A stretch of 64,000 nt of DNA from Isurus oxyrinchus. Its lineage: Eukaryota. The stretch lies in assembly GCA_026770705.1 (NCBI GenBank), contig JANJGN010000021.1:90024001-90088000 (forward strand), read 5' to 3'. Position 1 is the first letter of the stretch, and each line of letters begins with the position of its first letter. Below the pieces are notes generated by a model, which saw nothing but the letters and a program-made list of their open reading frames with translations, was not told the origin of the DNA and made no database searches. The position numbers were made by a program, and so were the translations under genes. Positions 24,651 to 51,840 of this stretch are shown here, piece after piece.

Positions 24651-25997
24651 AAAGAGAAACGTTGTTTTCAGTGTTGGCTGTCTCGGGAAGCTGGTTTTTC
24701 AGGCCGGTGATTCAGCTTTTCCACAGCATAGGCTGTGGCGAAGCAGTGTAACTTCAGGATTTCCGCCTTAATCTATGCTTGCGATAAATGCTGAAATTGC
24801 GGTCAGATTCATACGTTTCATGACGGTAAATGGTGATATTTCGTCAGTAAAAGAAAATGGAAAATTCTGGACATTATGTTATTAAATGACAATATGTTTA
24901 CGTGATGAATAGTAATATGATGATTACACAGAGGGTTTTATTTCTCACCCTGATAGTAAACGTTGGAACACACTTACCGAAAGATTAGTCCAATTGTGTA
25001 CTTGTGATTTGATTTTCTATTAGGACATGTGATTTCAGAGAAACATTTGATGTTACAATATGTGAACTGAAAGTTTCTTTTATCCGATGTTGGAGGCGTT
25101 TCTTGCTCTAGATAAAAGCAGGACAGTCAATTATGGAATGTTAAAGTCCAAATGATTATTAAAAAAAACACTGAAAAGGCTCAAGTAACAGATATTCCCC
25201 AGAATTCCTTCAGAAATGTTTCCACTACGCCAGAAATACGGCTCGAACTATATTACTAAATACAACATAAGCCAAAATAAGTTATATCGGCAAATTGCCT
25301 TAAAGACAGTATACTTCTTTAGTACAGGTCTTTTTTAGCACAGTTCCTTGCTCTCAGAAACAATTCCCTGTTCCTCGCACATCATTCAAAGTAGTTCTTA
25401 CATTTCTTAACGAGATTGTGGCTCTCATAATTAACGGAAATATCTCAGTTATAAAATAAACTGGGTATAAATGTCTTCCCCGAGCTTCGATGTGGGTCCA
25501 TTGGCGTTTTCCTGGTTTCACAATGCATTCTATGATCTAAAATTCCTTACGATCCCCACCACCCGCAGCTGAACTTTAAAAGAAAAGGAAAACACTTCTT
25601 TAAAACTCTCTGGATTTAGATTTAATTCAATGTTCCTGGTAATTTTGTCTGACAACCCCACACGATTTATGGTGTGCATTTTGGAAGGGTTCCTTTCAAT
25701 TGCCTGCAGATTCACGGAGAGCCCAGAGGGAGGAAAAGGTAGTAACTAGTCGAATCGCCAAGGAAGCTCTCCCTCCGCTTCCCCGCTCATCCCGCTTTTA
25801 AAATTGGCCCTGTATCACCAAGATTCTTGCGGTAAAGGAGCCAGCTCGGTTATTTCAGCATGCACCCTGATGACGCTGCATTGTTAGCTTCCCAACCGAG
25901 TTTAACTTATCTGATAATGTTGTTATTTTTCCTTCCCCGCCGGTGAAAGAATTTGCCTTTTAATACAAACGTTTATTGTTTCTTTCCTCGGAAATAG

Positions 25998-26027
25998 ACC
26001 AGCTGAAAAAAGCCCTTGCTGATATTG
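25998..26027 (+). CDS. Micro-exon, 30 nt, phase 1-1: DQLKKALADI
   Basis: tttattgtttctttcctcggaaatag|ACCAGCTGAAAAAAGCCCTTGCTGATATTG|gtgaga. Confidence 0.8.
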
Positions 26028-27169
26028 GTGAGAAAATGCTTCGAAAAATAGTTTGTGTCAACAAGCATAGGATCGCCGAACAAGTTTTCAGTGCACTTAA
26101 ATGCGCTACGGATTTAAACAATCAGTATTATTTACTTGTCTTTTAATACCCAGCCATGATCTTATTATTAAATGAGTGTATAAACAGTATAACAACGAGA
26201 ATTCGTAGTTTCATGCATTCTTTTGGTGAGTGTTTGCGTCTTCTGAAATATCGATTTAACTCGTGTACTTCAGAAATGCTTTTGAGAAAAAAAGAAAAAT
26301 ACGCGCTTTAGTCATAAAAAAGCTACATTTGTAACTGACGCTGCAATTGTATTGCTTTTGTTGTACCGTTGTATTGTTATAGCTTGGTTTGTTGGCGGCA
26401 AAGTGGCCGAACCGCAAAATTCAAAACATTCCAAATTCTCAAGTTTGCTCCCCTAATCGTCCGAGTATAGCGATTATTTATTTTTAGGTAGTTTGATTGA
26501 GGATAAGTTGACGAGAACTCAATATTCTGTAGTGTTGTCAGATTGACATGCAACCTGGGGTTATAGTCAGAGTATCAAAATCCATACAGCAGTATTTTAG
26601 AGTTCAATTTTGTTACGTGCTGCATAAAAGATTCAGTCCAAAATTCGTATAATCTTATTTTGTACGTAATAGCTAAATGTAATGAAAAAGAACAAGCAGT
26701 CTTCGCTTTTATACGACTAATGATCTAAATATATGGACGCAGGCGCTCGTTGCTTTTCTTCACTGGCAGCCCCAGCTGTGCAGACACGGATTGGTGATTA
26801 AGGGTTCTATAAATAGGGCAGTATTTGTGAAAGCATAGGCTAGTTCGTTCAATAAGCTTCAATAGTGCAGTAGCGGAACAGTGGTACGCTATGACATTCT
26901 TTCCTCTCGGGCACAATTGGATATATCAATGCATTAAAATACGCGTCTCAACATTTTCTCCTTATTATTAGCAAAATTGGATTTATTATTTGCCCAATTC
27001 TCACTTAATCCAAAACAATCCCATTTTAAGCTAACAGTATTGGAATTCACAAATAGTATTTCATGCTCACACGCGTATCCCATTTGGATCTGCTTCGGAC
27101 TGAACTGCAGTAATCATGTCCACCAAGTGGATAACATTGATCTAAGTTTGGTGTTATTTATATTAGGGT

Positions 27170-27680
27170 ATTAATGCTTCATGTCCAAACTTAAATTACC
27201 TTTGCCATTCGTATTGATAGATGTATTAGTTTAAGTGGCTGCAACTCTAAATAAACATAAGTTACGGAAAGATGTGGAACAAATTTATAGGTTGAGGAAT
27301 ACAGAGGAACAATATGAATAATTAAGCTCATTTAATGTCGTGGCATGAATCGGAATAAAAGAACTTTGGATGTTTTCTCTCGTACTTGATACCACTGTTA
27401 ATTAGCGTCGCCCATTTAGGACAAAAACGAGGAGACATTTTTTCCACTGAGAGGGAGTTGTGAGCCTTTGGAATTCTCTTCCTCAAAAGGCGGTGGAATC
27501 AGAGTCTTTTAACATTTTTAAAGCAGAGTTAGACAGGCTCTTGTAAGTAATGATGTGGAAAGTTATCGGGAGCAGCCGGGAATGTGGAATTGAGGTCACA
27601 ATTGGTTCAGCCATGATTTTTTTGAATGGCGGAGCAGAATCCAGGGATCGAGTAGCCCAATCCTAATTCGTATGTTCAAA
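27170..27680 (+). mobile_element. CR1 3' fragment
   Basis: ctttggaattctcttcctcaaaaggcggtggaatcagagtcttt...cagccatgat...gaatggcggagcag matches the tail at 12350-12530. Confidence 0.8.
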
Positions 27681-27739
27681 TGCTGAAATTGAAATCAATG
27701 CAGTTTGCTTTGTTGGTCACATTTAAATACAACGGGGTT

Positions 27740-30700
27740 GAAGATGGCTGCTTGAAAAAGGAGAAGAGCGCACAGCTAGAGCTAAGATTTAAAAACCGAC
27801 GAGTCAGAGCAAAGGTTTAAAAAACGGGCTGCTAACATTGGATTTTTAGAAGAGCTGGAGCTGAGGGCCATAGCGGAGTTTTAAAAGCAACTCACTGATT
27901 GCCAGGGAGGAGCTGGAATGCATCCTCTTTGAACTGACGTCACCGGACAAAGAGTCACGTGAATCTCTTCCTCGGAAGCTTTTCATTTAAGCTAAATTGA
28001 CTCTAACAAAAGGCTAGATTTATTGCTTAATGAGCAAAAGTCTCAAAATTATTGGAGCCTATTTCTTCCTCTCTAATTTATCATATAATTACAATCACTG
28101 CTCAATCGTTTAATCTGATCGCTGGATAAAGATGAAGTGGAATAACAACAGCTAATAGCATTTAAGGCTATTGATTTGTTTTAGAAATTTTTAAAGTAAG
28201 GTAGTTTGAAAATGAGAGTTAAGTCAATTAGCTTTCCTATAAGATAATGGGATATCAACGCAGTAGACGGAGCTTATTAGTGATTAGATGACAGGTTATT
28301 TAAGTTTTTTTTAAAATAGAGGAATGGCAGGGAAGATCAGTTTCACGCAGTGCCCCGCCTGTGAAATGGGAAGTTCAGACGCCTTAATGTCCGCGATAAT
28401 TCCCATGTTTAGGAGTGCCGCCAGCTGCACACGCTCAAGCTCCAGATATTGCGATTTGAATAGCAGGTTATCACTGCGACTTATCCAAGAGGTTGTCAAT
28501 TTGGTGTCTATCTCGTTTATTGATGTGGGCGCCACGCAGTTTTAGGGTATGCAGGCCGAGAAGGAATAGGGGACATCAGGCAGTCAAGGACGACGGAGAA
28601 TATCGTGCAGAAATCCAATGAGAACAACTTACTGTGGAATGATATGCGCCGCGAAATGCTGGTGAGATTGTTAACTGCCCTGAGAATTGCAGCCAGAAGC
28701 AAAAGATCGTCTGCCTCAGGTGTCGAGGTAGAAGCAGTGGCGGAACGGAAAACGAGGAAGTTAGGGAAATCGACAGTGATAGTGCTTCAGTTATTAATGG
28801 AACATAAACAATTTACTGTGGCCACAGACATGTATGCAGGATGCCAAGTTGCCTCCTTGGTGCCAGAATTAAATATATTACTGAATGACTTGTATAGCAT
28901 TCTGAGGAGTGAGGGTGAACAGCCTAAAGTCGTGGTTCATAGATACTGATAATATTGGTAGAAAGAGGGATGAAATCCTACAGACATTGCTTAGGGAGCT
29001 AGAAAATTAACTGGCAAGCAGAAACTAAGAGTCTAGATCATGCGTGTGCTCCCAGTGCTACATTCTAGTGTATTTGGAAATAATAAGACAGAACAGCTAA
29101 ATCTGTTATTAGGGAGGTGCTGCAGGAGAGATGGCTTTAGATTTGGACCTGATCTGTGGAGATGGGTCCAGAAGAGTGTGGGCGAGTTGCTCTGATCTGA
29201 TCAGGAGCGGGACCTGTTCTATTATGTAAGCTTATAACTAATTTGCTATTGGCGTGGCGAACAAGAAATATTAGCTGGGACGAAGGAAAATGCACTTTGA
29301 AGCAGCAAGGACAGATAACGCCAGGGGACGAAATAATATGTTATTAGTTGGTTTCAGGGTAAGAGGAAATGAAACAAGGTTTGAAAGATTGTCAGTATGG
29401 AAGTATATCAATATCCAGAGTGTGATAAATACATTTTATGAGTTGCAGGTGCAGAGCCTTGTGGTAAAATTATGTGGTGGCAATAACGGGAGATGTGGCT
29501 CAAAAATGGACAGATGCTAAATATTTCTTCATACAGTGCGTTCAGGGAGCATTGGGATTACATGAAGGAGGTGGGTAGCTGTAGTGGATAAGAAGAATAT
29601 TACCATGCAGGAGAGAGGAAATGTAGAGGGCTCACAGAGAGAGTTTGTCTTGTTAGACGTATAAAAACAATACAAGTACTGTTGTGCTTCTGGGTGTATT
29701 CAGTCGACCAGCAGTGGATAACACGTGGAGGAAAAAAGCTGGAAGGTCATTACTGATAGATGAAAACAACTATAGAATGGTTTTAATTGGAACATTAATT
29801 GCTCGATTTTAACTTGGGAAATCAATAGTATGGGGGTGCAGTGAATGAGAGGAATTCACGAAGTAGCTTCTGGAGAATTTACGTATCAACATTTTGTGTC
29901 CGCCCACATTGGAATAATGCACTGCTGAACCTGTTTTGGTGCATAGCTAGGTCAAATCGATCAAGTATCAGTGGGCGATCATGTAGAGATAGCGTTTATA
30001 GGATCATACATTGTATTAAAAATGGAGAAATGAGAAATCCAGAGCAAAATGAATTAAAGTAATGACGATTATGCTTCAGTGGCTTGGGAGCCGATCTATC
30101 CAATATAATCTGGAAGAAGAAATTAGCCAGGAGAATTGTAAAGGAACAATATTCCACCTTCGAAGAGGCGACATGTACGGGAACATATGGATATTTTCCG
30201 ATGAAGGGAAGAGGTGTGGCAAAAAATGAAAATCCAGAAGTCTCTGGATGACAAGATTGGTAGCGTGTAAGATGAGCAAAAGCCCTGCATATCACAGATG
30301 CCAGGTGAATAAGACAACGAATAACCAGGCTGAGTATAGAAATTTCAGATGGAAAGTGAAAAAAAAATATTGGAAGCAAGTCCAATGTTTGAGAAGCGAC
30401 TGGCAACTAATATACACAGAAAGTAAAAGCCCTCCATAGGCATATAAAGTGCAAACACGTGGTAAAATAAAGGGTAGGGCCACTTTTAGGCAAAAAAGCT
30501 ATGTATTTAATGGAAGCAGGGGCATGTGCGAATTACTATGTGTACACTTTGTCTCTGTCTTTACCGTTGTAGACTATGCTGCCTGGGTAATAGTGAAGGC
30601 TGAATCTTTGTTATACCGATACTCTAAAAATTATAAACAGGAGGGAATGGACAGGTTGATTGTGCATACATTTAGTAAACCACCCAAACCGCACGAGGTG

Positions 30701-32220
30701 CATCCAAAGATACAGATGCAAGTAAAAGTCGAAATTAAGGAGGCCAGGCTATAATTTCCCAATATTCCTTAGATACAGTTGTGCTGCCAGAGTATTGGTA
30801 ACATTGTACCTTTGTTCAAAAAACTGTGTAAGGATAAGTAAGCCCGCCATCCACAGACCAGTGAGTTGAACATCGGTGATGGGAAAGTTGTTAGAAACAA
30901 TAATTCCAGACAGCATTAACCTTCACTAAAGCACATTTGGACGATTGCTGTTAAGAGATGAAGGATTTTTGAAGAGGAAACAGTGTTCAACGAGCTTGCT
31001 TGAGATCTTCGATTAAGTAACAGAGGGTGTCAATGAAGGTTCACGTGGTTTATGGTGAATATATGGACTTCCAAAAGGCTTTTGATAAAATATTACATAA
31101 CGGGGCTCGCAGTAAATTTAGAAGTCATGGGATAACAGACTATTGCAGATGGGATACAAATTTTGGTTAAGGGACACGTAGCAAAATAATAGGTTATTTT
31201 TCAGATTAGGTGAAGATGTACAATGGGCATCGGCAGGGATTATTTTAGGACCACTGGTTTTCATGATCTATATTATTATCTTAGCTATGGCAAAGTGCAC
31301 AATTTCAAAACTTTCGAATGACGCAAACATTGGATGTATTTTGACTAGTGAGGAAAAGAATGAGAACAACGAAGTTATTGGTGGAATGGGCGGGCAAAGG
31401 GCAGATGAAATTTAAGGCAAAGGCGGGTAAAATGATTCACTTTGGTAGCAATGACGTGTAGAAACAATGCAAAACAAACAGCGACAAATTTAAAGGTTGT
31501 GCAGGAGCAGAGCGACCTGGTGTATATGTACAGAAGTAACTGAAGTTGGCCGGGGAGGTTACAGCAAAGCTTAATAAAACATACAGGGCCCTAGGCTTTG
31601 CAAAACTGGATCGAGAGAACAACAGCAAGGACGTTATGATTATTCTGCATAAATGCTGCTTCTTTTTAAATTGGAGTTTTTTTATTCAAATATGAGCATC
31701 ACTCTTATTGAAAAATGTGAATGCAACAGAGACAATGTAGGGAAGAAAAACAGTCACCAGAATGGCTCCAGGGATGATGGGCCAATTCCATGTGGCGAAA
31801 TTGCAGATGCTGTTGCTATTTTCCTTTGATAAGGGAAGACTAAAACGAGATATTATAACTGTTTTCACAATCCTGAGGCAGCAGTACAAAAAAGAGAGAT
31901 AGATTATTTTCATTTCTCCTGCTGGCAGAAAGCATGAGAACCAGAAGACAGCAAATAAAGTTAATTGACAAAGCAAGCAAGGACAACATGAAGAAAAACA
32001 TTTTTGTCAGGACGTGCCTTTGGAATGCTCAACCTGAGTGTGTGAGGAGGCAGATTCAATCACGGCCTTCAAAACAGAATTGGCGAATTATTTGGAGGAA
32101 AATAACTTGCAGAACTACGGGGAAAAGGCAAGCAGTGGGGCTCGGTGACTTGCTGTTCCATACAGTTGACAAGGACACGGTGGCACGAATTGGATCCCTC
32201 TGTGCTTTAACCATTAGCAT
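27740..32220 (+). mobile_element. Near full-length but heavily mutated CR1 LINE (5'UTR, ORF1 zinc-finger/esterase, ORF2 endonuclease-RT, 3' tail)
   Basis: ORF1 start MAGKISFTQCPACEM (CxxC) at 28324, esterase-like EGEQPKVVVH at ~28910, endonuclease start YINIQSVIN at ~29404, YMDFQKAFDK at ~31060, 3' tail ~32190-32220. Confidence 0.85.
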
Positions 32221-32229
32221 CGTCATGCA

Positions 32230-33585
32230 CGCCTTTCCATCTGTTTAAAATATGGAAATGCCGCAAACCCCTTAGGGATGGGAGGGTTCTATATGATTGA
32301 TTTTTGCTTATGGCTGAAGATTTCATTCCGTGAAGGGCAGGATTTGCCACAAGCGCTGCATTTGAGATGGCAATCTTGCACTACTGTGGCGAGTTTTGTT
32401 TAAAGTATTGTCAAGCTACTGTAGCCACTGATCACCACTGCGCCGCATGCTGGGGAGAGTCGATGGTGTCATTTTCATTTATAGTTAGCCAATATTTCCT
32501 ACTAGTGCAAATCGACATTTTTAGGCTTTATATCACACTAGAAGTACTCTTGAAGCAGATTTTGGGCGCCCTCCTGCGGTCCTGAATCTGTTTATGTCGG
32601 CGTACAGAAAACCCTTGAGAATCTTCAATCCTGCGAATGTAACTGAGCCAGAAATGTCGACTTGTATTGAGTATACTTGCGAGATGTTTTCTTTAAGGGA
32701 ACTGTTACGTCATGTTTTTTGTCCTTCCATGAGGTATCCAGAATCTGTTGCAAATGATGAAGATGAAAATGGATGAACTTCCTTTCCTGTTAACTGCAAG
32801 GTGATAGTGCTTCACAGTTATTCAACAATATACCAAGAACGCACGGGTCATAAACTGGCATCTTGGTCTCAACAGTCGGGTTGTTTTCCCATGCATGATG
32901 TGTGAGTCAGTGAATGGCAAAGACCTCTACCATATGCGCGCATAAAGTCAGATTGTGTGTCACGGTGGATCAAAGATAGCATAATTTTTTCACCATTTCC
33001 GACAGTGTTATTGAGTGCACTCAAGCGTGGAGCTGTGGCATCCTGTCTCATAACTTATGACTATTGCATCAAGTTAAAGACCTGGAAGAGAAAATCGAGG
33101 ATTCATTGCAGCTGAGTTTCTGTATCAATGGTTAGCACCGCATCATCGATGTAGAACAGTTTTCTCGTAAAGACATGCTGTATGTTTGTCTTCACTTTCA
33201 GTCTTGACAAAATGCAAAGTTTTTCCTCCTAGTTTGCAGGAATAGTCAGGTACACGGAAAAGAGAAGTATCAAACAATTTGGGGGCTGGGGCACAGCCCT
33301 GTTTCACTTCATTCTTCACCCTGAAATTTTGGAGTGTGTCAAACTCTACAGTACAGTGCAGAACAAGAAAAGAACTGATGAGACTAAAAGGCATTGGGGG
33401 ACAGCGGCGTTTCTCCAAACTTGAAGCACCATGCCTTGTTTCAAATGCTTTACTGAGATCTACGAAAGTAAACAAAATATGTATTTCCTGTTTCTCTGCA
33501 CTTGTCTTGCAGCTGGTATCAGGAGAACATAGTGTCCACAGTGCATCTGTCAGCTGTTTTCTGTCCTCAATTATCATTAGAAAAG
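32230..33585 (-). mobile_element. RTE-clade LINE fragment (RT to 3' end)
   Basis: ORF 33143-33577(-): FTFVDLSKAFET, VKQGCAPAPKLF, characteristic of RTE/BovB-type RT. Confidence 0.8.
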
Positions 33586-34259
33586 TGTATGATTCTCAGC
33601 AGATCTGAAATTCCTATTTTCAAAAATTCAAATTCAATCCATCTGTTTTGAGACAAATGTAGACATGAAAATAAACTAAAAAAACATAAGAAGTAAACAT
33701 TAAGCGGAAGACACCTTTTTAAAATATGTTACTTGAGTTACAAAGATTTGACTCCCATGCTAATATTTGTACTGTTTTAAGTGCCAACGAGCCATATTAT
33801 TTGACATATGACAATGAATGAATTCAAATGATCCAAAGTCGCCAACAAAACTTCACAATTTTTCCTAAGATGCGGTTGCTCTGAAAATAAATTTTGAACA
33901 TTCAAAAATGCAAAGTAAATATTTTGAAATATAACTCAGGTGTAAAGTAATCAGGTTGATCCTATTGTCTATTACCACTTTGGGGAATTGCCATGCATAA
34001 AGCCTGTAAGAAGGAAAAATGGTGCAGGGCGAAAGTACCATGGTGGATGTGAAAAATCACATATTTAGCACTTTGAAGATAATGAAAAGTCGAGATCAGA
34101 GCTGATGGGTGCTTGCACCGTAGCTGCTGGCATTAAGCGTTTAAAAATTTCTTCGAACATCCCCCGTGGATGAAACAGACATTGAATCCTTTATATGCAA
34201 CTATTATTGCGGCCTTTCCGTTGCTTTCTCTTATTTTTCTCCTTATGTTTTTGGAATAC

Positions 34260-35285
34260 ATCACACATGACACGCATTCAAGTTAAGATCACTCAGTCAG
34301 TCATTGAGCTCCAATATGCAGATGATGCCTGTGTGTGTACGCACTCAAGAACTTGCCCTGTTCATTGTCAACTCCTTTTCTAAAGCACAAGGAGAAAATG
34401 AGCACTTCACTGAAATATGGTAAATTGACCCCTCTTCCAACCCACTCCCATTAAACAACACGTCGGCCCGACCCTCACCTCCATGGATTAATATCAACTG
34501 TAAGGATCTGGGTGACTCCCCGTATTTTTGGCGCCATGTATCAGCGAAGAAAGACACAAGCCACAAGATTCATCATCGCCTCCAAAGTTCCATTTGAACA
34601 TTAACCCGGCTGATGCAAAGAACATTTGAGGGCTACGCTCTCAAACTGGACCAAAGATAATCGCCTTCTATGCATCAGAGGTCACCGTGCTCCTCTATGT
34701 TGTGAAGACTTGGATAACGTACAACAGGCACTTCAAAGCACTGGGGTAGTTGCAGAAGCAGTATCTTTGCAAGACCCTTCAAATCCGCTGAAAAAGAACT
34801 TTGTCCAAGAACAGCATTCACGACCAGTGCCAGCCTTGAGGTACTAGCCATTCAAATCCAGCTCTGCTAGGCAGAACATGTTGTTATTAAGTCTGACACA
34901 AGGCTCACGAAACAATTGCTCTACCTGCAACTCGGTAATGGCATGAGACCCCCAGAAAGATGGCAAAAAACGCCTTATCGTTCCCCTAACTGCATCCACG
35001 AAGTGGTTGAACATCCTCACCAACTCAAGGTAATCCCTGGCATTTGACTGAACAAAATTCATTGACCATATAGAGGCACATCGTCAGGAAAAAAGCAGAG
35101 GCAAAGTGGAAGAGTCAGAGTGTAGAAACCTCCAAATGAACTCAATTAGCCGACCCTTCGACCCTACTTTTCCCACTCGTGGCAGAGTGTACAGATGGTG
35201 CACTGGACTTAGCAGCCACCCCAGAATCCATCGATCTGGAATGAAAGCAACTGATCATCGAAACCATAGGTCTTCCTAAGGATTC
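34260..35285 (+). mobile_element. RTE-clade LINE 3' fragment
   Basis: VIELQYADDACV at ~34300; C-terminal zinc-finger-like remnant cccactcgtggcagagtgtacaga...ggacttagcagccac at ~35170-35220. Confidence 0.75.
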
Positions 35286-36232
35286 ATGAAACCTTCATGC
35301 AGGCACGTGGTGCACACATGCTTACTAAACGGGAATTAGCGATGCTTTTAATTTAAATGCATTCAAATGAACAAACAGAATGTGGAAGGACTCTGAGTTT
35401 AAATGAAAAGGCTAAATGTAAGTATATAGAAGGATAATCCGCTTTCTTTTCTGCTGCTCGCAAAAAAATCCTGATCCTTTATTCAGGGCGTCTCTAAGCA
35501 GCGGTTTTGTATGAAGCTCATATGGGGAGCTTTGTAAAATCGCCCAGGTCCCGTTTCATGAATGAAAATTTGTGGGCGCAGAGGATTATATAGGGAAATG
35601 ATTTACATTGCGATGATTTTGTGATAGTGTATACATGCCACTACATTACACGGAACTTTAGGCAACAAATTTAAATTGTGTCCTGGATGCGTGTGCCTAT
35701 GTGCTAAAATGCAAGGAAAATTCAAGGCTGCTGTGATCTCAGTAAGTTAACAGTCGCTGAAGTGGTTTTATCAATCCTTTGATAGAGCATTTGTGAGGTT
35801 CAACCTGAACGAAGGAAAACATGGGAAGTAATTTTGTTAGTGGAGAATGGAACAATGAGGCCGCGAAATATTACAAAAATGGTTGAGGTTTACCTGAAAT
35901 ATAAGTTGTAGGCTCGGAAGCATCGGTGAATGGACCAAGGCACTATGCTGTCACTTTTCACCAGCTGTGGACCCACATAAAGGAGAAAGATGGCCGTGTA
36001 TTTGTTCTCAGAGAAACAGGCGGCGTTGGCCTTTTTGCGCAAATGAAATCGGACAACAGAAGAGTTTCTGTAATTCAAAATGTATTCAGGAATGTGAAAC
36101 TGTAGATTGATGATTAGCATATGTCATACCATCCACATTGACCATTGCAGAAGCTGCATTTAATGTTCTTTCACATTATATCCTCACATTGTTATTAACT
36201 GTTGATTTTCTTTGTTCTTGCCTGATCGACAG

Positions 36233-36256
36233 TCGCACTGCAGGATAGAAATGCAG
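36233..36256 (+). CDS. Micro-exon, 24 nt, phase 1-1: VALQDRNA
   Basis: gattttctttgttcttgcctgatcgacag|TCGCACTGCAGGATAGAAATGCAG|gtagga. Confidence 0.75.
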
Positions 36257-36429
36257 GTAGGACAGCAGTAATTCATATGAAATATTTATGAAAATGTATA
36301 GCATATATCAACTAAGCATGCAATTATTAAATAATAGTGTAACCATCTCAGTGTTAGTGACATATTTTTATAATATTATGCTGAGATGAGAAGTGATAAA
36401 GGCATGAATTCACCTGAGGGAGGGGTTGT

Positions 36430-38855
36430 ACACACTACGATGGGGTTTAAAATAAGAAATAATGGGAGCTTGTCAGAAGGGTATGGCGATAATAAAGGGA
36501 GATTATATAACCTGGAAAATTCAGATGGGCAAAGGTAGCCTTAGATAAGGAATTCAAAGGACGTTTTCGGAATAGTTTCTTAGAACTGCTTATTCTGGCA
36601 ACAACCAGAGAGCAGACAACACGAGATCTGGTATTTTGGAATGAAAGAGGATTCATTACTGACCTCATAGTGATGGCGCCCTAGGTAGCTGTAATTATAA
36701 TAGCATTCCATTTTAAATTCAGTTTGAGGGAGAGAAGAGTGTGCCCAAGGTTAATTTTGTAAACTTGTCTATGGGCAATTCTGAGGGCACGAAAGTAGAG
36801 CTAAAGTGAACTGACAAGTTAGGTTAGGGGATTGGTGAATACAGATGTCGTGGTGGATATTTAACGGGATAATTCAGAATGCACAGAATGTATACATTCA
36901 AATAAGAAAGAAACAATCTAAGGGGAGGACCCACCATTCATGTTTAACTAAAATAGCTACGATAATATCAAACTTAAAGAAAAAAGAAACAAATAATTGT
37001 GCAAATATGTCTGCCAGTTCAGGCTAGAGAAAGCTAGTTAGAAATATGAAGGCAAATATTAAGAGTTTCTATAGATATTTAAACATGATCAGAGTTACAA
37101 AATGAGGGTTGGCCATATAGAAGGTTAGTGTGGGGGATTGATAATGGAAAATAAGGGGATGGTAGATGAATTGAACAGGTATGTTGCTACAAAGGATACA
37201 AGCAACATCTTAGAAATAGTTGTAAATCAGCAAATGTAAGGGAGGGAGCTGCACAAGAAAATTACAATTGCCAGGGAAGTGATACTGACCACATTGTTGG
37301 GGCTATGGGATTACAAGTCCTTGGGTCGTGTTGCACTTCATCCTCAGGTCATAAAATGAATGGATGATAAGATAGCTGATGCATTGGTTTTAATCTCTCA
37401 AAATTCCCTAAATTCTGGGGAGGTTCTATTAGTTTTTAAATAGCGAAAGTAATCTTTGTTAAGAAAGACAGGGAGACAGAAAACAGGAAACTGCAGACCA
37501 GTTAGCTTAACATCAGATCGTGGGGAAATATTTTACAGCAAATTATTAAAGAAATTATAGTAAGGCACTTATAAAAAAACAAGGTAATCAAACAGGGCCA
37601 ACATGTTTTTGTGCCAGGGAACTAATGTTTAAGGAATGTATTTGGGTTCTTTGAAGACATGCATGTGCTGTCGATAAAATGGAAATAGCTGATATAATGT
37701 ACTTAGATTTCTAAAAGGCATTTGATAAGGTGCCACATCAAAGGTCACTGCAGGACACAAATCTCATGGTGTCGGGGGTAACCCACGGGTAAAAGATTGA
37801 GTAGTTAAAATGAAACATAAACAAGGCATACATGGGTAATTTTCTGATTGGCAGGATGTTATAAGTGTTATGCCACAGGAATCGATGTTGGCGCCTCAAC
37901 ATTTTCACAATTTTTATAAATGACTTGGACGATAGAACTGAAAGTATAGTTGCTAAGTTTGCTGATGGCAGAGGGATAGGTAGGAATGTAAGTTGTGAAG
38001 ACGGCACAAGCAGGCTACAAAAGAATATGGATAGGCTAAGTGAGTGGACAAAGATCTGGCAAATGGAGAGTGTGAAATTGTCCATTTTGTCAGGAAGAAT
38101 AAAAAGGAAGCATAGTATCTAAATGGCGAGGGATTGCTGAACTCTGAGGTGCAGAGGGATCTGGGTGTCCTAGTGCATGAATCGCAAAATTTTATTATGC
38201 AGGTCCGGCAAGTAATTAGGAAATCTGACGGAATGTTATTATCTATTGCGAGGGAAATTTAATTTAAGAGTAGGAGGTTCATGCTTCAGTTATAGGGAGC
38301 TTTAGTTTGACTACAGCAGGAAAACTGTGCGGAGTATCGTTCTGCTTATTTAATGAAGCAGATAAAAGAAGGTTTTCGAGACTAATAAATGAATAGGCGA
38401 CTTGTCTTATCAAGAAACGTTGGACAGTCTATGGTTTCATCCACTGATCTTTAGATGAGTAAGGGGCTACATGATTGAAACATATAAGATCTGGAATGAC
38501 CTTGGCAGGGTGGATGTGGAAAGGACACTAGCTCCTGTGGGAGTATCTAGAACTAGCAGTCACTGCTTAAAAATAAGGGGTTGCCCATTCAAGACAGAGA
38601 TGAGGAGAATTTTTGTTTTATCCTGGAGAACCATGAGTCTTTGGAACTCTCTTGCTCAAAGGCCAGTGGAACCAGACTCTGAGCAATGTGAAGGAATATA
38701 TAGATAGATCTTGATACACAGTGGGTGAAAGGCTATCGGTAGTGTGCGGGAAGGTCGATTTGAAGTTAGGAATGTCTCAGCCATGATCTTATAGTGTAGG
38801 GGAGCAAGCTCGAACGCTGAGTGACCTTCCCCTGCTCTTAATTCATATATTCATA
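36430..38855 (+). mobile_element. CR1 LINE, ORF2 (late endonuclease to 3' tail), decayed
   Basis: FTIFINDLDDRTESIVAKFAD (ORF 37865), MIETYKI (ORF 38471), tacttagatttctaaaaggcatttgataaggtgcc at ~37700. Confidence 0.9.
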
Positions 38856-39257
38856 TGGTCATGTTACATTGTTCCAAGGAAACTAGAAACTTCATTGATA
38901 TAAATATATTATTTGTATGGTATGAGACTGAAGTGCTAAAAAATGTATATTTCAAAATAATAGCAATAATAGCATGCACGTGACAAATTCGATTTAAATT
39001 ATTTGAATATTTTTCATTTTATAACAGCACAGATTAAAATTCCCTTTGTATTTTCCAAATTATGCCAAAAAGTAAGCGAAAAGAACAAACACCTAGAGCT
39101 CCATCGACGGCGACACGACAAGTTCTTTTTCAATCGCTTTAAACCCGTTTTCCCCTGCCAATCATTATTTTGAAGCCCGATCCAATTGTTTGCTCAGCGT
39201 TCAAATGCATGATTTCCAAGGTCAATTAATTGATTCTCACCAGTTATATGTTAAGCC

Positions 39258-39390
39258 CAAAAGCAAAAAAAAAAAAAAAATGCGTATTGGAAACCTGAAA
39301 TGAAAACAGAAAATGCCGTAAATACTCAGCAGGTCAGGCATCATCTACAGAAAGAGAAAAATATATTACATCTCAGATAATGAACTCACA
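39258..39390. mobile_element. Short Penelope-terminus fragment
   Basis: gaaacctgaaatgaaaacagaaaatgccgtaaatactcagcaggtcaggcatcatct matches the reverse complement of 3965-4030. Confidence 0.65.
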
Positions 39391-39419
39391 TTAGTACTCA
39401 TCAATTTCGTTCCAGTTTT

Positions 39420-40780
39420 TTCATCACCCTTAGTTTCGCTATTTATTTGATATTCCCTTTCGTCGCATTAAATCACACCACCATTCAAGTTAGATGATCT
39501 ACTTTAAATTGCATCTTGCTCTTCTCAATTATTATTCTAAATCTTATTACACAATTATCACCCTTACCCAATTGTTCCCCCATATGCATTGGTCCAATGT
39601 CCCAATTGGCCCATCTCATTCCTAATGTCATCTTCCGCAATATCTTTTTCCCAGCTGCACTGAGGGTTTTCTGGTGAAATGAGTTCTCATGAATACATTT
39701 CAAGAATGGTGCCGCCTTTCCCCCCTCAATATAACATTACCTTACACAATGTTTAGGTGATTGGCTTACCTAAGTATCATCAAATGATCCGTTCTTTCAC
39801 ATCTGTCATTATTCTGCAGCTTTGTTCCCCTGACTCTCATTATTTGAAGGCGTACAGAATTGCCCATGATCATGCATTTCGTGCTTCTCAAATTCCGTGG
39901 CCTCTTTAGGGACATCTTTACTTTCTAACCATAAAGTATCTGACATGATCAGTACTGCCACCCATCTCCATTTTCCCTTCTCAATCTTATCTCAACAGTT
40001 TGTCTGATTGAATGTTTAGGGCCATGTCCTCACCATATTTAAGACATATTTCCGTCATTGTCACAACATCACTTTCTCCACTCAGTTGTTTGTGCTGAAG
40101 CTTACCAACATTATTCCACCACACTCTGGGCATTTACGTACTTGCATGCTAAATCTTGACTTACATTTTATCTAATATTGCACCACTTAATTGTTTGGTT
40201 CTGTTCATTCATCACAATCTTTTATGCGCATATTTTCTGGCTGCTTCCATTTTTTGGTGCCCCTCATGCCGATTGTGATTAAACCTTCCACAACTAAAGC
40301 AGTGAAACTTATCTTTGGACAGTTGAACCTAGTTCCCTAAAGGTGCAGCCAGTGACATTTAGATAGACCCCTCCTGCTTCAATTAGCGACTATGCCATTT
40401 TAATCTTAAGCCTCCGTCCTGCATTATGCTTCATGTCATTCATTGATGATCAATCTCTTCATATTTCTCCTATTTTGAAGCACACAGACTTGGAATTAAC
40501 CCTGTGCTCTGAACTTATACAGTCCTACTTTTTATCTTCTTCACTAGTTCCTGAAATTCTGGCAATCGAACCTCAATTCATGTTCTCTCTATGCCATTAG
40601 TACCGACATGTAACAAACTTCTGGTGCATGTCCATCCCATGGACGAATTTCCTGCATGCTCTCTGTGACATCGTAAACTTGCCACCAGGAAGACAACATG
40701 CCTTTCTGGACTTACAATGATGGTAATAAAACTTGTGTCTGACCATCAACATGAAATTCGATATGACTGCAGCAGGTACC
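39420..40780 (-). mobile_element. Decayed CR1 5' fragment (ORF1 esterase to endonuclease)
   Basis: ORF 39485-39703(-) GEQLGKGDNCVIRFRI (EN 'SDH' region); minus-strand CCLPGG at ~40680-40700 resembles the CR1 ORF1 VCCLPGA motif. Confidence 0.6.
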
Positions 40781-40920
40781 ATTAGTGTGATGAGCTATGC
40801 CAATAACTGGTGATCTGAACTACAACTCATGCTCTGAAAATCGAATTGCCTCCTTTAAACGCAAATATTTATGATGCCATTACTGGTTAATCCACCTTAA
40901 ACGTTTTCTTCTTTTTTTAG

Positions 40921-40947
40921 AGCTGGAACGACTTATTGCAGAGAGCA
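40921..40947 (+). CDS. Micro-exon, 27 nt, phase 1-1: ELERLIAES
   Basis: acgttttcttctttttttag|AGCTGGAACGACTTATTGCAGAGAGCA|gtgagt. Confidence 0.8.
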
Positions 40948-40959
40948 GTGAGTAGGATC

Positions 40960-43900
40960 ATTTTTAGGCTTTGACAGGATGTGGGCATCACTTTGTTGTC
41001 CAACATTTGTTATCTTTCCTAATTGACTGTAAGAAGGAAGTGCTGAGTTACCTGATGGAACTGCTCTATTAGGGAGGGAATTCCAGCATGTCGATCCGGT
41101 GACATTAAAAGGGCGGAGATACGCTTCCAAGTCAGGACATGGAGTGATTTGGTAGGGAACTTACATATGGTGGTGTTCCATACAAATATTTCCTTTGGCC
41201 TTCGAGGTGGCAGAGGTCGCAGGTTTGGAACTGTAAATTGCAGTTAAATTCTAATTGCAACCGCTACTAGCTTTTAGAAGAGAATGATAATAAAATTAAA
41301 CACGTAGAATTCCCTTATTAACACATTCATAATTTCACACTCTGTTGCAAAATACACTCCGTCACAAACTGCTACTTTTGATCTTGCTTACACCAGCAAG
41401 GGAGGTGGCACACAAAGATGCCCATGTGTCAACTGTCCTCGGCCTTTGAGATATTAGAGGTCGCAGGTTTGGAAGGTTGTATTGACGGAACTGTGATGAG
41501 TTGCTTCATTGCTTCTTGTATACAATACACTTTGCTGCCAATGTTACGTCTGAGGCGGATGGACTAAATGTTTAAGATGGCATATGGGGTTCCAGTTAAG
41601 CTGGCTGGTTTGTCCTCAATTGTGTCCAGCTTCTTGAATATATTGGGAGATACACACATCCACGTAAAAAGGAGAGTATTCCATCAGGCTTGTACATGCA
41701 CGTTCTAGATGGTGGATAATGTTTATAGGTGAGTTACCCATCATGGAATTCAAAACACTTGATATTCTCGTGCAGCGACAGTATTTATATGGCTGCTCCA
41801 GAATAGCTCATGGTCAATAGTCTCCCCAGGAAAGTTGGAGATTTACTGTTGGAAATGCAATTGAATGCCGATTACATTCTCTCTTGTTGGTGATGGTGAT
41901 TATCTGTCACTTGTGTGGCACGAATTTTAGTTTATACTTATCAGCAGTATCCTAAATGCTGTCCCATGTTTTGTTGCACACGGGCACAGGTGCTTGAGTG
42001 TCTGAGAAGTAGCCAATGGTACTGAAAATAAAGCAATACCAAAGAACATCTCCACTACTGATCTCTTGATGGAGGGTAAGACATTAATGACGCTGCTGAA
42101 GATGTCTGGGCCCAGGAACTCCTGCATCTCTGCCGTAGGGCTGAGGTGATTTACCTCCAACAGCCACAACCATTTGCCTTTGTGCTAAACATGTCTCCAG
42201 CCAGTGTGTGTTTTCGTACTGATTTCCATGGACGTTCTTTATGCTAGGGCTCTCTGATACCTCGCTCCATAACAAAGTTGTCTTTCCATCAGTTGCAGAC
42301 ACTCCAGCATCACTCATGTTGCTCAGTCTTTATTTCAATGTTTGGATGTGAGATCAGGAGTTGCGTGGCCATGGTGGAACATAAAATGAAGTCAGTGAGC
42401 AGTTTATTTCTGTTTAACTGTCGCTTAAAACACTGCTGATGAAATCTTCCATAACTTTGGGGATGATCGAAAAAAGACTGTTGGCAGTCTCTGGAGAAGA
42501 TGGACTGCGTCGGGGTCTTTGTCACTTATGGATTTAAGACCATTGTATATGGCCTTAGAAGCCCATTTGTGAGATGCAGTCGTATCTGCAACTGGCACAC
42601 ATGAATAGCATTGGCCCGAGGTTGATTGATTTTTAAAGTTCGTTCCTGAGGGCTCAATCTTCCAACATATTCTCAGGCCCTTTGTCGTCGGCTTTTTCCT
42701 GATCTTTTCTTGCTAATTGTCTCTGGACACTCTGGTTAGAAGCAATGAGTTACGTCCAATGCATCGATTCAGATCTCTATCAACTTGATATTTCTCTTGC
42801 AGGCATCCTTGTACTGCAGATGTGGGTGATCTATTGGTCTTATGCTGATAGCAATTACTCTATAGGACATGCCTTTGGGGAATCATCACACACATATTCG
42901 GCTTAAGAGACCCAGTCAACGGAGACACTGCTGACTCAAGAGGGTAACAGGCTGGAAATCCCTGCATGCTGGTGAATTTCCATTTTCGACATTCACTCCA
43001 GCTTGGAGATGCTCAATATTTGCCTGACGCAGCAGAGGTGGAACCCGTTTAGTTGCTTTCTTTGGCTTGCCCGAGTTGCCCATACATTTCTGCTGTAAGA
43101 ACATAGACGGTTGGTGTGGTACTTGTCTGCATAACTTTGTCTAACTTTCTTATGAACAGGGCATAACTGTGTAATTTTCACCATCTCCGGATAGATGCCA
43201 GTGTTCTGGCTGTATAGGAACATGACTTTGCACGGCTATTTCTCGAGCACCAGTCGTCAGTAATATTGCTGGGAAGTTATCAGGCCCCAGGATGTTTGCA
43301 GAATCTACTGTCTTCAACCGCTCCTGATATCACATGGAGTTAATCAAATTGGTTGAAGACGAGCATCTCTGTTATTTAGGATCTTCGGAGGAGGCCAAGA
43401 TGGAGCATGTACTTGGCGCTTCTGATTGCAACTGCATCAGTTGTGCGTTTTGCACTCATGTGCGTCATTGAGGGCTGGAATATTTGTGGAACCTTCTGTT
43501 CACGTTATTTAAATGTTCTGTGAATTCTGTGAATTTTGTTAATTTTCATCTGACTGAAGGTGTTAGGTTTTGAGAACTTTCATCTGATGATTGGTTATGG
43601 AATCACTTATCTCTGACTACAGCATGCTGCTTCCGCTATTTACTTTGCAAGTAGCCCTGTGTTCCAGCTTCACCATGTTGACACATCATTTTCTAAGTTT
43701 CCTTGCTGCTGCTCCTGGCATGCATTCCTGTACTCTACCTTGATCCACGGTTGATTCCTTGGCTAATGGTAGAATCGGGGACACATCAGGCCATGAGCCT
43801 GCAGATTGTGGTTTAATACAGTTCTACTGCTGCTGATGGCCCACAGTGCCCCATCGGTTCCCAGTTTCGAGTTTCTTTTTCTCTGTTCGAGATCTATCTC

Positions 43901-44965
43901 ATTTAGCACTTAATAGTGCATCAAAACACGATGGAGGGCAGCCTCAATATGAAGGCGGAATTTCATTTGCAGAGGGATTGTGCGGTGGACACGCCTGCCA
44001 CTACTTATGTGGACATATATAGCTGCTGCAGGTAGATTGTTGAGGACACGGGCAAATAGATTTTCTACCTTGTTTGTACATTTGCGAACTGCCACAGGCC
44101 ATCTAAGCGTAAAGGCTTTCAGTACTCTGTCGGCTTGGTCGATAGTGGTGCTACTGAGTCAGTTTTAGTGATGGGCACTGATGTCCCCGCCGAGATTGCA
44201 TTATGTGATCTTTCCACCGTCAGTGCCTCGTCCAAAAGGTGCTCAGAGTGAAGGGATACCGGTTCACCGGCTGGGGAAAGGCGACATTTGGCAGTCAGCA
44301 GGAAGTTGCCTTGCCTATGTTTGACCTTATGCCATGAGGCATCATGGGACACAAAGTTAATATTGAGGACTTCTAGGCCAACCCACTCCCTATGGCATGT
44401 CACTGTGCTGCCACATCTAGTGGGCCTGTTCTACAGATGGGGCAGGACATATCCAGGGACATGGTGTGCAGCGGATGGGACAGTGATTATGATTATGTCA
44501 ACCTACTGCTTAAACTGCCAGGAGTACACCGCTCCCAGTTTTGGCACAGGCCAGATGTTAATAAATAGGACTTTGCAGGGTATTTAGAAGTGGGAGTGAC
44601 GTTGTCGTCTCCGATGCCTTGGACCATAGCTGGATGGTTCATCTGCTTTCATACCTTTTTTTTACTTTGTAGCAGCTTGGTATAACTGAATGGCTTGATG
44701 GGCCACTTCATAGGTCATTCCAAGATTTAATCACGTTGCTGTGGGACTGGATTCAGAAATAGGCCAGACCTTGGAAGGACAACAGATTTCCTTCCTAAAG
44801 GACAAAACATTCAGCGATGGTTTGATGCTGACAGAGCTTTTAATTTCAGATGTATTACTTGAACTTAAATTGCATCAGCAGCCTTTTCAGGAATTGCACT
44901 CATGATACCTTAGCATTCACCTAGGGTTTCTGGATTTCTATTCCGTGACATTGCCACTGTGCCAC
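40960..44965 (-). mobile_element. Family-B LINE, apparently end-to-end (tRNA-like head, endonuclease, RT, tail), interrupted by an RTE fragment
   Basis: Tail at 40960-41230, RT at 41900-42520, TGIYPEMVKITQLCPVHKK at 43140-43210, endonuclease start ~44480-44580, head 44680-44965. Confidence 0.8.
42530..43125 (-). mobile_element. RTE 3' fragment nested in the family-B LINE
   Basis: Minus-strand LNGFHLCCVRQILSI (RTE-type 'FH.RCLR.IL.I' motif) fused to family-B sequence in ORF 42993-43223. Confidence 0.65.
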
Positions 44966-46326
44966 AACGAAGTTATTGCTTTTTGCCGATAGGTCTCCAA
45001 ATAATAGTGTGGGGAGGGGTGGAGTGGGGGAAAGCATTGACACACAACTCATAATTTGAAATGGCCTTACCTGCTCTGGATGGACAAGTTTAGTTAACAT
45101 TTTCACTGCTTACATCCCTGGTTTTTAAAGACGTAAAGATATTGTGAATTAATATCCCTCTATCTAAAAACCTTTCCTCCTACTTATTCTCCAATATTAG
45201 CTTAAAGCTTACTTAAAGAGGCATCCTGGTTGTTTTTGACAGTATGCTCCTACACTATCAATGTCTCTTCAAGTAACGAGTCTTTGGAAGAAGTTGGAAC
45301 ATGATTCAAAACAATTCCCACTTCCTCTTCATGCAGCTATATAAGTTGCAGTAATGAAATAATATATATATTTTGAAGATGAATCATCACTCATAATCAG
45401 TTCGTTAGGGCAACTGTAAAGTTAGAGAGCAACCAGGAATAATTAGATAAATTAGGAATAAATATTTTGCCACATGACTGCAAGTTAGAAAAACAAAATG
45501 AAATTGAATGGAGCAAAATTAAAATCACAAGTTGGGGATGTCAAACGGCAGCAGTGCCGAACATTAAATATTGTGGTGCTCTTAGATATAATTGCTTCTA
45601 GTAACCAAGGCATTAATAATTTATCTTCAATCTTTTGTGGTGCTATGATGGCAACTTTTGTATAGTACATGATAAATAATTAAATGCTGTCGATGAGGGG
45701 GTGGGGGGCGGTGGTGAGGGGGGAAGAGGGGGTTTGGGGGGGGGAAGTGGGTGGTGCTTATCCATTGTTAGGAGGTGAACTGTGATATCCAGTATCTTTC
45801 AAGTCTTGGTGATGCTGAACAATACAAGTATAGTGAGCCGAAATGCAAATTTCATCCCTCATTGCATTTAATGGTCTCTCAGTTGAAAATCTTGATGTTT
45901 CATCTTTCGTTGCCTTTGCTTAAATCCAAATTATGGCATTAGGATTACTGATTTCTCATTGGTGCTGCAGCAAGCTCTGACACAGCGCAGGGACTGAAAG
46001 GTATCCTCGCGTTTGTTTGGAAATAGGGCTTCGGACTTTTTTTGGTAATGCATATTGAAAACGTTGTCTTAGTATGAGACTGCCGTGGAAAACAGAGATA
46101 GGTAATTACAAATTGGGGAATAGTGTTTCATGGGGGTTATCCTTTCTACTGTCGTAAAAATAAGGTACACGATCCATTGGGAATAATATGCTTCCGAATA
46201 AAGGATAATAAATAAAAAAAAACACTTCTAAGTGAAAACATTTACCTCATGCAGTTGAGTGTTTGCTTGCTGAAAACTATGGCAATTAACAATGATTTAC
46301 ATTGATACTGTGTGACTTTCTTACAG

Positions 46327-46353
46327 TGAAACAGATGCTGGCAAAAGATATAG
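46327..46353 (+). CDS. Micro-exon, 27 nt, phase 1-1: MKQMLAKDI
   Basis: gtgtgactttcttacag|TGAAACAGATGCTGGCAAAAGATATAG|gtaagt. Confidence 0.85.
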
Positions 46354-46459
46354 GTAAGTTTTAAAGGAATGTGTGCATGCATTTCGTAAATCTCAATAAT
46401 ATCTTTACTTGATCACCAGTATAACAAACGTGATGCCACCAAGACTGGGACGAAGCTTA

Positions 46460-46660
46460 TATAAAAGCATGAAATGCTGGAAATACTCAGCAAGTCTGTC
46501 AGCATCTGTGGAGTGAAAAACAGCGCTAACATTTCAGGCCGATGGCCTATCATCATCCGAAATGTTGAACTGATATTTCTCTTCTCAGGTGGTGCCAGGT
46601 TATGCCCAGCGTTTTCTTCTTTTATTTCAAATTTCAAGCATTTGAATTACTTTTCTTTCG
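46460..46660. mobile_element. Mini fold-back made of two inverted Penelope termini
   Basis: aatgctggaaatactcagcaagtctgtcagcatctgtggag...ccagcgttttcttcttttatttcaaatttcaagcat; both arms match the ends of 2305-4035. Confidence 0.65.
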
Positions 46661-46699
46661 GACCAATGTATTACCTTAATCATGGTGACAGGTAAAATT

Positions 46700-47910
46700 C
46701 GAGACAGGTGTCTAGATGAGGGTAATGTAATTGCTGTAGTTTATATGGATTTCAGCAAAGCCTTTGACTAGGTCCCACTTGGGAGACTTACCAAGAAGGC
46801 AAATGCACATGGGCCACAGGGTAATTTGATAAGGTGAATTCAAAAGTGGCTTAGTTGTAGGAGACAGAGGGTGATGACAGAGGCTGCTTTAGTGACTGGA
46901 AGCCAGTGCCCAGTGGGTCTATGCTGAGTGCCTTATTATTCATCATTTATATCAAAGACATTGATGACAATTTGAAGGGGGGGTGGGGGTGGTGGTGGCG
47001 GGTGTAGGATTATGGATGACACAAATATTGGCTGGGTTGTTGACAGTGAGGTTGAGCGTCTTGGGATACATGAAGATATAGACGGGATGGTCAAATGGGT
47101 AGATAAATGGCAGCTGGAATTCAACCCTGAAAAGTGTAAGGCAATACACTTTGGAAGGAACAATCTGATGAGGAAGTATTCAACGAACAGCATGACACTA
47201 AGAAGTTTTGAGGAACAAAGGGACCTTCGCTTGTGTGTCCATAGATCTCTGAAGGCAGCGGGGCATGTTAGTGGCATTGTGAAATAGGCATATGGGACAC
47301 GACTTTATCAATCGAAGCTTAGATTACAAAAGTAGGGAGGTCATGTTGGAGTTGCAGAGAACCTTTGTAAGGCCACAGCTGGAGTACTGTGTGCAGTTCT
47401 GGTCACCGTATTATAAGAAGGACATGATTGCTTTGGAGGGGGTGCAGAGGAGATACACCGCGATGTTGCCTGGGATGAAACGTTTATGTTATTGAAGAGA
47501 GGTTGGATAGAATTGGGTTGTTTTTGCTGGAGCAGAGAAGACTGAGGGGCGAACTGATCGAGGTTTACTAATTATGAGGGGCATGGACAGGTGGAAAAGG
47601 AGCATCTTTAGTTGAAGAGTCAGTCACGACGGGACACAAGTTCAAGATGAGCAGCAGGAGGTTTAGGGGGATGTACAGAAAAAACATTTGTACCCAGAGT
47701 CTGGAATGCACTGCCTGGGAGGATGGTGGAGGCGGTTTGCCTCGCATTCTTCAAAAAGTACCTGAATGAGCACTTGACACGTCATAACCTTCAAGGCTAT
47801 GGGCCAAGTGATGGCAAATGGGATTAGGTGGGTAGGTCAGGTGTTTCTCACATGTCGGTGCAGACTCGATGGGCTGAAGGGCCTCTTCTGCGCTGTGTGA
47901 TTCCATGAAA
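46700..47910 (+). mobile_element. 5'-truncated CR1 (HER1-like) LINE
   Basis: YMDFSKAFD at ~46743, WQLEFNPEKC, VRPQLEYCVQFWSP, tail gactcgatgggctgaagggcctcttctgcgctgt. Confidence 0.9.
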
Positions 47911-49011
47911 TATGTGATTGGGTTATCATTACTATTACACAGAACTATTTATATTAATATGCAATGGCTCAAAAACCAAAAATATAAAGATTACAAAATA
48001 AGTGTCAGCATGGCCACATCAGAACACTGACATCTTTAATTTTATCACTATTCCCACTATTAGCTAATCCATTTTGCTTTTGCCTACATAGTATAGGTTT
48101 TCGTCTTTAGACTGCTCATTACATGTGGAGTCTGACCCAACGTGGTATCCAAAAAAGCATCCACTCTTGCAGCCATTCCGGTGCTCAAGTTTGCACTCGG
48201 ATTTCCTGTCCACCTTGATGGAATTGATCTAATGAGTGATAGCCGGTGTAGATCATGCCAGGAAAATAATCCGATTTGCACGATATAATCGGTATTGAAG
48301 CATGAAAGTAAAGCTGACTGGCATTTTGCCATCATTCATGAAGATTATGTAAAAATTTGGAGATTGGCTAAAATTCATCTCGTTAATTCTAAAGGCAGAA
48401 ATGTACATTCAAGAAACTCAACATAAAATTACGTGGAACTATGAAGTTAATGAAAGAATCCGCAAGATTGTCTGGAAACAAAGCATTTGAATAATTTGTC
48501 CGCAGCACAGCCTGTGGGCTTGAGCATGTTCATGCCAATCTGCGCTGGCACTGTTACCTGACAATTCGCCGTGAACAATCCCACCTCGCCCTCCACCACA
48601 ATATCCAATCCAAAACGTCCTACCCATTACTTTTAAAAAATCTAGCTCCTTTCCTTGGCGGTTGGTTTAAATTTCAAGGTGTCCTTTACACTCAGTTGAA
48701 TGTGAACAAAATGAAATGTGTTTTGAAACCCATAAATAAACTCTACTTACATGCTGCATGTGAACACCACAAAAATTCATGCTAACCTCAACTTTCAGCT
48801 TCAACAGATCTTTATCAAACAGGTTTACATGGAAGGTTTAATTGAGAAGCGTGGACAATTTATGGCTCATACTAAGCCACCAGGACTGCGCCCTACCAAA
48901 ATTCAAAGTTCAGTTCAATGATTGTGGGCTGATTATCCCTCAGACAGTATGTCATATATGAATGAAACACTTCAATGAGGTTTGACATTTTGTCAATGTT
49001 TGCTCCTTCAG

Positions 49012-49047
49012 AAATTGAAATTCTGAAGTTAAAGGTCACTAATGCTG
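49012..49047 (+). CDS. Micro-exon, 36 nt, phase 1-1: EIEILKLKVTNA
   Basis: ttttgtcaatgtttgctccttcag|AAATTGAAATTCTGAAGTTAAAGGTCACTAATGCTG|gtaagg. Confidence 0.85.
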
Positions 49048-51822: not shown

Positions 51823-51840
51823 ATGGCAAACAAGCCCCAG
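51823..51840 (+). CDS. Micro-exon, 18 nt, phase 1-1: DGKQAP
   Basis: ttaatttatgtctcacag|ATGGCAAACAAGCCCCAG|gtaaga. Confidence 0.8.

Follow-up and report, generated by a model that had tools for sequence, protein, structure and literature searches.

Five small exons of Isurus oxyrinchus as a probable damaged module copy within a very long microexon gene of a shark cluster

Five very small exons lie far apart in a 64,000-nucleotide stretch of the Isurus oxyrinchus genome (contig JANJGN010000021.1, positions 90,024,001 to 90,088,000; hereafter the window), raising the question whether they form one coiled-coil chain and what kind of gene they belong to. An earlier note, made from the letters of the window alone, had read them as an unbroken heptad register resembling a GCN4-type zipper and proposed that skipping one exon could switch oligomerisation. 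All five exons are flanked by AG and GT, are in phase 1 and lie on the plus strand; they measure 30, 24, 27, 27 and 36 nucleotides (nt) and start at 25998, 36233, 40921, 46327 and 49012. Joined by script, they encode 48 residues, and the best register places L, I, N, I, M, I, V at the a positions and A, L, L, S, K, L, A at the d positions, matching the note. The analysis takes in 1.86 Mb of contiguous sequence that includes the window, and positions outside the window are given relative to it. The five exons are very likely genuine and belong to something far larger that is poorly annotated. We consider it probable that they are a damaged module copy in a gene with no fewer than 121 predicted phase-1 exons of 27 or 36 nt, within a shark cluster likely encoding very long cytoplasmic helical rods.

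Judged by sequence comparison, the strongest support for the five-exon chain is a complete paralogous module. Two further genes carry the module in full, one at +674,468 to +693,547 and the other at +1,225,297 to +1,241,204, its exons measuring 12, 9, 9, 9 and 12 codons. That the five exons are parts of a single helical chain of coiled-coil type is therefore best proved by paralogy. Aligned with its paralogues over 12 codons, exon 1 has a family-typical 36-nt form at 25992..26027 (score 38.8 in the family exon model described below), in which the acceptor reads GG instead of AG. The 30-nt form (25998..26027) uses an internal AG at +6, a weak acceptor of 1.7 bits; such an internal AG is also present in 18 of 94 36-nt family exons, and 6 of 170 family acceptors are as weak. 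Exon 1 has the sole broken acceptor among 114 exons of the window's gene, 111 of which are intact and free of stops while two have broken donors; the paralogues are intact in 34 of 34 and 27 of 27 exons. Exon 2 (36233..36256, donor 9.4 bits) is a 27-nt type-B exon short of one internal codon, as seen in the DNA comparison with the paralogous exons at +674,698 and +1,225,531. The lengths of 10 and 8 codons therefore appear to be features of this copy, local damage consisting of a lost acceptor and a one-codon deletion. Exon 3 (40921..40947, 27 nt, ending in A) is matched by its paralogues. By position statistics, exon 4 (46327..46353) is a 27-nt type-B exon with a hydrophobic codon 4, K/R at codon 7 and D at codon 8, and exon 5 (49012..49047) is a 36-nt type-A exon with hydrophobic codons 2, 5 and 9. 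The family model scores of these three exons, all in-sample, are 21.9, 24.4 and 33.3.

How large is the gene to which the module belongs? A generic scan of 464 kb returned 126 phase-1 exons on the plus strand, with 31 of 27 nt, 52 of 36 nt and 2 of 21 nt; on the minus strand there were 44, three of them of 27 nt and three of 36 nt. A family exon model was then trained on the region from -352 to +773 kb, where 178 exons score 13 or higher. Out of sample, at a score of at least 9, two unseen stretches contain 33 plus-strand exons versus one on the minus strand and 40 versus none. The whole 1.86 Mb holds 242 family exons on the plus strand and none on the minus strand (in-sample up to +773 kb), and 121 of them fall in the window's gene. 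This gene, from about -242.5 kb to +366.4 kb, comprises at least 121 predicted microexons over some 610 kb and is predicted to encode at least 1,323 residues, so that the entire window (1..64000, plus strand) is the interior of one predicted gene. The cluster is larger than 1.6 Mb: it begins near -357 kb and extends past +1,254 kb.

The exons follow a simple pattern. Of the 36-nt exons outside a tandem array described below (n = 63), 92% have a hydrophobic residue at codon 2, 92% at codon 5 and 78% at codon 9. Of the 27-nt exons (n = 82), 74% have one at codon 4; K/R is found at codon 7 in 56 of these exons and D at codon 8 in 28. Across 178 family exons, Pro accounts for 0.1% and Gly for 1.1% of residues. 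Twelve plus nine codons equal three exact heptads, so a heptad repeat would continue through such a pair. Two nine-codon exons together would span 18 residues, in which the heptads are interrupted by a single stutter; in the module this stutter would fall across exons 3 and 4. Two 12-codon exons in a row, or exons of 8, 11 or 14 codons, would break the register. In the excerpts of PMC4786415 on which we draw, 18 residues are decomposed as 7+7+4, i.e. a stutter, and a five-residue insertion, as 12+12 codons would require, must spread over at least two heptads.

Is the heptad register of the five exons, then, unbroken? For these five exons it is, but it is not the design of the gene: the paralogues run 12-9-9-9-12 with a four-residue stutter, and junctions between two 36-nt exons are common. 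Ranked against all 120 orders of the five exons, the native order comes first on the Kyte-Doolittle (KD) and Eisenberg scales, but only 8th on a binary measure, 10th by Fourier power at 3.5 residues and 25th by count. With the 36-nt form of exon 1 it ranks 13, 5 and 32. The nearest family exons on either side are a 36-nt type-A phase-1 exon upstream (9000..9035, plus strand, score 31.1), absent from the earlier note, and a 36-nt exon downstream (55128..55163, plus strand, score 38.8), whose direct joining breaks the note's register. When both are added, the native order ranks 2021, 2199 and 3294 of 5040, which is chance level, and the note's register, when extended, falls on D, R/K and M on the upstream side and on N, K/R and D on the downstream side. 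Because the signal is gone once the flanking exons are included, the periodicity is not the independent proof of the chain that it had been taken for. Of 5000 random five-exon chains drawn from the family, 13% equal the native one when scored by KD and 4.9% when scored by count; among 141 consecutive predicted windows, 39 reach its KD score. The hydrophobic Fourier peak of the 48-residue chain lies at 4.18 residues, not 3.5. Large hydrophobic residues (L/I/V/M/F) occupy 9 of the 14 a and d positions in this register, compared with 11 of 14 in a family register with breaks.

The comparison with GCN4 fails, and the dimer rule invoked in the note does not apply here. A GCN4-type zipper has Leu at nearly all d positions and a conserved Asn at one a position, and forms a parallel dimer. 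Here Leu is found at three of seven d positions, and the Asn falls at an a position in the note's register only. The site is not conserved: four paralogous exons read N, D, D and E, and of the 82 exons of 27 nt, 28 have D there and 9 have N. What does hold arithmetically is that skipping a single exon keeps the frame and shifts the heptad phase. The link between exon order and heptad phase is also supported: in three stretches of a RefSeq paralogue model, some of whose exon boundaries were deduced from mapping gaps, the native order was reached by 25, 56 and 13 of 2000 shuffles. Exon order therefore matters across the family, with breaks built in. The unbroken register is real for these five exons alone and is a product of local changes; splicing as an oligomer switch would be no more than a possibility.

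Where do the genes of the cluster start? A genome search returned just three paralogous start exons of 39 codons: those at +392,498 and +896,233, and a partial one at +833,918. Each is preceded by a promoter-like element, of which a fourth copy lies at -276,098 to -275,849 (E 2.4e-9); behind this copy at -276 kb no start exon was found. The number of paralogous units in the cluster is thus four or more, and five are probable. The start exon is hydrophilic, helical exons follow it directly in RefSeq models, and no signal-peptide or membrane-type exon was found after the start exons. Reading the start exon as that of a type II membrane lectin was rejected, as no membrane exon follows. Close to their N-terminal end, the start exons (L145:2233-2349 and L054:8498-8614) have in common a conserved acidic motif with a Tyr, which is a possible binding or phosphorylation site; no other conserved segment that was seen is non-helical. 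A signal-peptide-like stretch at -353,158 was discarded, as it is pyrimidine-rich and has no in-frame ATG. A further candidate start exon, at -363,584, has a strong donor but is unlike the family start exons.

Searching with the start exon identified four catshark proteins. The +896 kb gene matches one of them, XP_072329363.1, over 36 colinear exons of 24, 27, 33, 36 and 42 nt; 28 of the 35 junctions are gapless, and the gene runs far beyond the end of the model. One junction differs by 0, +21 and +8 residues across this genome and two catshark models. None of the four catshark proteins contains a Pfam family at E 0.001. A motif scan for lectin, Ig, SPRY, C1q, TNF, fibrinogen, SRCR and collagen domains up to +864 kb, with crude patterns, gave nothing credible. 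Listing long open reading frames yielded repeats only, and a feature-atlas comparison brought up nothing beyond generic coiled-coil look-alikes, with 116-121 of 256 features in common. Longer relatives of one protein, P0001, were found among none of 7992 candidates, a weak negative; another, P0005, proved to be an unrelated repeat protein. Two similarities between gene gaps turned out to be dispersed repeats. With no signal peptide, membrane segment or globular domain found, the protein most likely acts in the cytoplasm as a self-associating structural filament or spacer.

How could such a gene have arisen? Because every exon is phase 1-1, a block of exons could be duplicated or lost without a change of frame, and the rod may have grown by exon-block duplication, giving parallel coiled-coil segments that would be linked by kinks. 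Selection on exon order would likely preserve the local phase. In the module studied here, loss of the acceptor of exon 1 together with the codon deletion in exon 2 would by chance have allowed a single forced register to extend over 48 residues, at the cost of moving family core residues to e and g.

Several points weigh against this account. Neither a start exon nor a last exon was found for the window's gene, so both its limits and its working status are conjectural. The exon chains are genomic predictions, and the RefSeq catshark entries are themselves predicted models. The family model recognises 27- and 36-nt exons only, and exons of 24, 33 or 42 nt in the window may escape it; a loose scan of the window for these lengths gave none that was convincing. 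A search for orthologues of the window exons among 7999 candidates returned only P0001, P0002 and four weak, unrelated matches, a weak negative. Finally, on two hydrophobicity scales no other of the 120 orders beats the native one, a first place that the same test gives to 0 of 44 five-exon windows in the RefSeq model; because of this, the exon 2 deletion may have been retained as improving the register.

Could the window's gene instead be a decaying or 5'-truncated copy, in which the shortening of exons 1 and 2 is neutral and exon 1 is skipped or the whole gene silent? The damage to two adjacent exons (a broken acceptor and a deleted codon), the failure to find a family start exon behind the promoter-like element at -276 kb, several expected 27-nt partners that were not found, and the lack of a database orthologue in our search are all compatible with decay, as is a nonsynonymous-to-synonymous ratio (pN/pS) of 0.67-0.84 in the tandem array. 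We consider it unlikely, given that 111 of 114 exons are intact and none has a stop, that 18 copies of the array unit have intact exons, and that the array exons are more alike than their far flanks.

The array itself consists of 33 tandem, near-identical 36-nt exons from -142,481 to -76,600, spaced by about 1.5 kb with no 27-nt partner between them. The exons are of two sub-types, of which one frequently has Cys at codon 9, and they form higher-order blocks of 4-6; the last exon has a GC donor. Identity is 0.74 among the exons versus 0.64-0.66 in the far flanks, and all 18 copies of the unit found by BLAST have intact exons. When the exons are joined, periods of 2.4, 3.0 and 4.0 are seen and no signal at 3.5.

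Such an array (-142.5 to -76.6 kb) might be a generator of diversity, its exons spliced mutually exclusively or combinatorially as in Dscam. Homologous exons of equal length lacking a 27-nt partner would suit such a role, and so would the lack of a 3.5 periodicity in the joined product, a 12-residue periodicity being beyond the helical coiled-coil range in the excerpts of PMC4786415. When the two flanking introns were compared with the array by BLAST, however, neither a general complementary site nor a repeated docking site was found, the best being one 19-nt match to five copies upstream and none downstream; shorter sites, or another mechanism, may still be at work. The array is also built of blocks of several exons. 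As the RefSeq models of paralogues join 36-nt exons in runs of two or three, constitutive joining into a non-coiled-coil, Cys-containing segment would be likelier than mutual exclusion, and we regard the diversity generator as improbable. It is similarly doubtful that the cluster is a splicing-programmed fibre kit, in which hundreds of frame-symmetric 9- and 12-codon register units and a mutually exclusive array of Dscam scale would let the choice of exons determine how a giant rod supercoils and kinks and which partners it prefers. That selection has made the five exons into an unbroken dimeric zipper of GCN4 type, with regulated single-exon skipping as its oligomer switch, is very unlikely: the first ranks on two scales, the fall of the KD score from 3.20 to 1.74-3.04 on skipping any one exon, and the three orthologous versions of the +896 kb junction, which could be isoforms, are set against the lower ranks on other measures, chance level with neighbours, paralogues with a stutter and no conserved Asn, too few Leu at d, and a chain that hinges on the cryptic 1.7-bit acceptor of exon 1.

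Other features of the region were seen along the way. Within the window's gene, recent multi-exon block duplications are present from +266,530 to +330,458, two copies having broken donors (+277,762 and +312,046). A separate run of about 13 exons lies at -357,433 to -319,227, its order parallel to residues 268-400 of a catshark model; no start was found for it, and it is either a further paralogue or a fragment. From +833,918 to about +862,000 there is a short paralogue that matches XP_038673008.1; its donors are weak or broken, and it may be decaying in this genome. The introns of the window are filled by an old repeat (44295-44421) and by decayed fragments of reverse transcriptase of LINE (long interspersed nuclear element) type, including those at 56163-56663, 6065-6499 and 17142-17555. 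The upstream neighbours of the cluster carry RRM and zinc-knuckle domains and are presumably RBM4-like. Two such genes are divergently oriented (L111:6103-6789 and L108:8812-9567 on the minus strand, L114:8992-9579 on the plus strand), one with a tail of Ala/Gln/Tyr-rich pentapeptide repeats.

The favoured reading, a damaged module in a gene for a very long helical rod, describes a vertebrate cluster of more than 1.6 Mb made almost entirely of 27- and 36-nt exons and mostly missed by annotation: database models have 152-730 residues, compared with the 1,323 or more predicted here. No description of the cluster was found in the literature searched, most subscription journals lying outside its scope. 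The cluster offers a natural test set for the effects of exon duplication and splicing on coiled-coil register.

How does the family compare with known systems? The catshark models XP_072329363.1, XP_038671248.1, XP_038673008.1 and GCB74337.1 share the 39-residue start exon and belong to the same family, but they are uncharacterised, apparently truncated, and represent neighbouring paralogues rather than the window's gene. XP_038671248.1 is named 'centromere-associated protein E-like', a name for which no domain support was found at the Pfam threshold given above. The hallmark of CENP-E is its kinesin motor domain; at that threshold Pfam finds none in the catshark proteins, and one weak, unrelated PDB match was seen at E 0.0074. 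Symmetric small exons also build the helical stalk of CD23/FCER2, from 63-nt exons, and of the products of schistosome micro-exon genes. In the shark genes the three-heptad unit is divided between a 36- and a 27-nt exon and interspersed with stutter units, and no lectin domain or signal peptide was found with it.

Arthropod Dscam is alike in having many homologous exons, all equally long, in a tandem array, which here comprises 33 exons of 36 nt. According to the excerpts of PMC5740500 considered here, mutually exclusive Dscam exons sit inside folded domains and their clusters reach 53 exons. The shark exons differ as 12-codon helical pieces, and a docking site was not found; if the array were mutually exclusive, its scale would approach that of the arthropod clusters. 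The lengths in the shark genes are like those of coiled coils with stutters, stammers and skips in the part of PMC4786415 used above, 21 residues being three heptads and 18 being 7+7+4.

The last comparison is with chicken BG, of the butyrophilin family. Butyrophilins end in a B30.2 (PRY-SPRY) domain; no credible motif of this kind was seen up to +864 kb in the crude scan, which covered no recognised last exon, the +896 kb gene itself running on past the DNA read. BG genes, as described in the sections of PMC5938342 and PMC4046983 drawn on here, have 13-36 exons of 21 nt (some 18 or 24) per gene, behind exons for a signal peptide, an Ig-V domain and a transmembrane segment. The shark genes differ in that their exons are of 27 or 36 nt, with at least 121 in one gene, and a 21-nt heptad tail is not seen (2 of 126 phase-1 exons). 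An Ig-V domain was found neither in the four catshark proteins by Pfam nor in the inter-gene gaps to +864 kb by crude motif scan, and no signal-peptide or transmembrane exon was found behind the paralogous start exons. On the evidence of those same sections, the two systems share a multigene cluster, a helical rod or cytoplasmic tail built of many tiny symmetric exons that split codons, a variable number of exons, and a heptad that spans the exon junctions. The shark cluster thus extends the BG design, from exons of one heptad each to a two-exon code whose combinations yield exact heptads, stutters or breaks.

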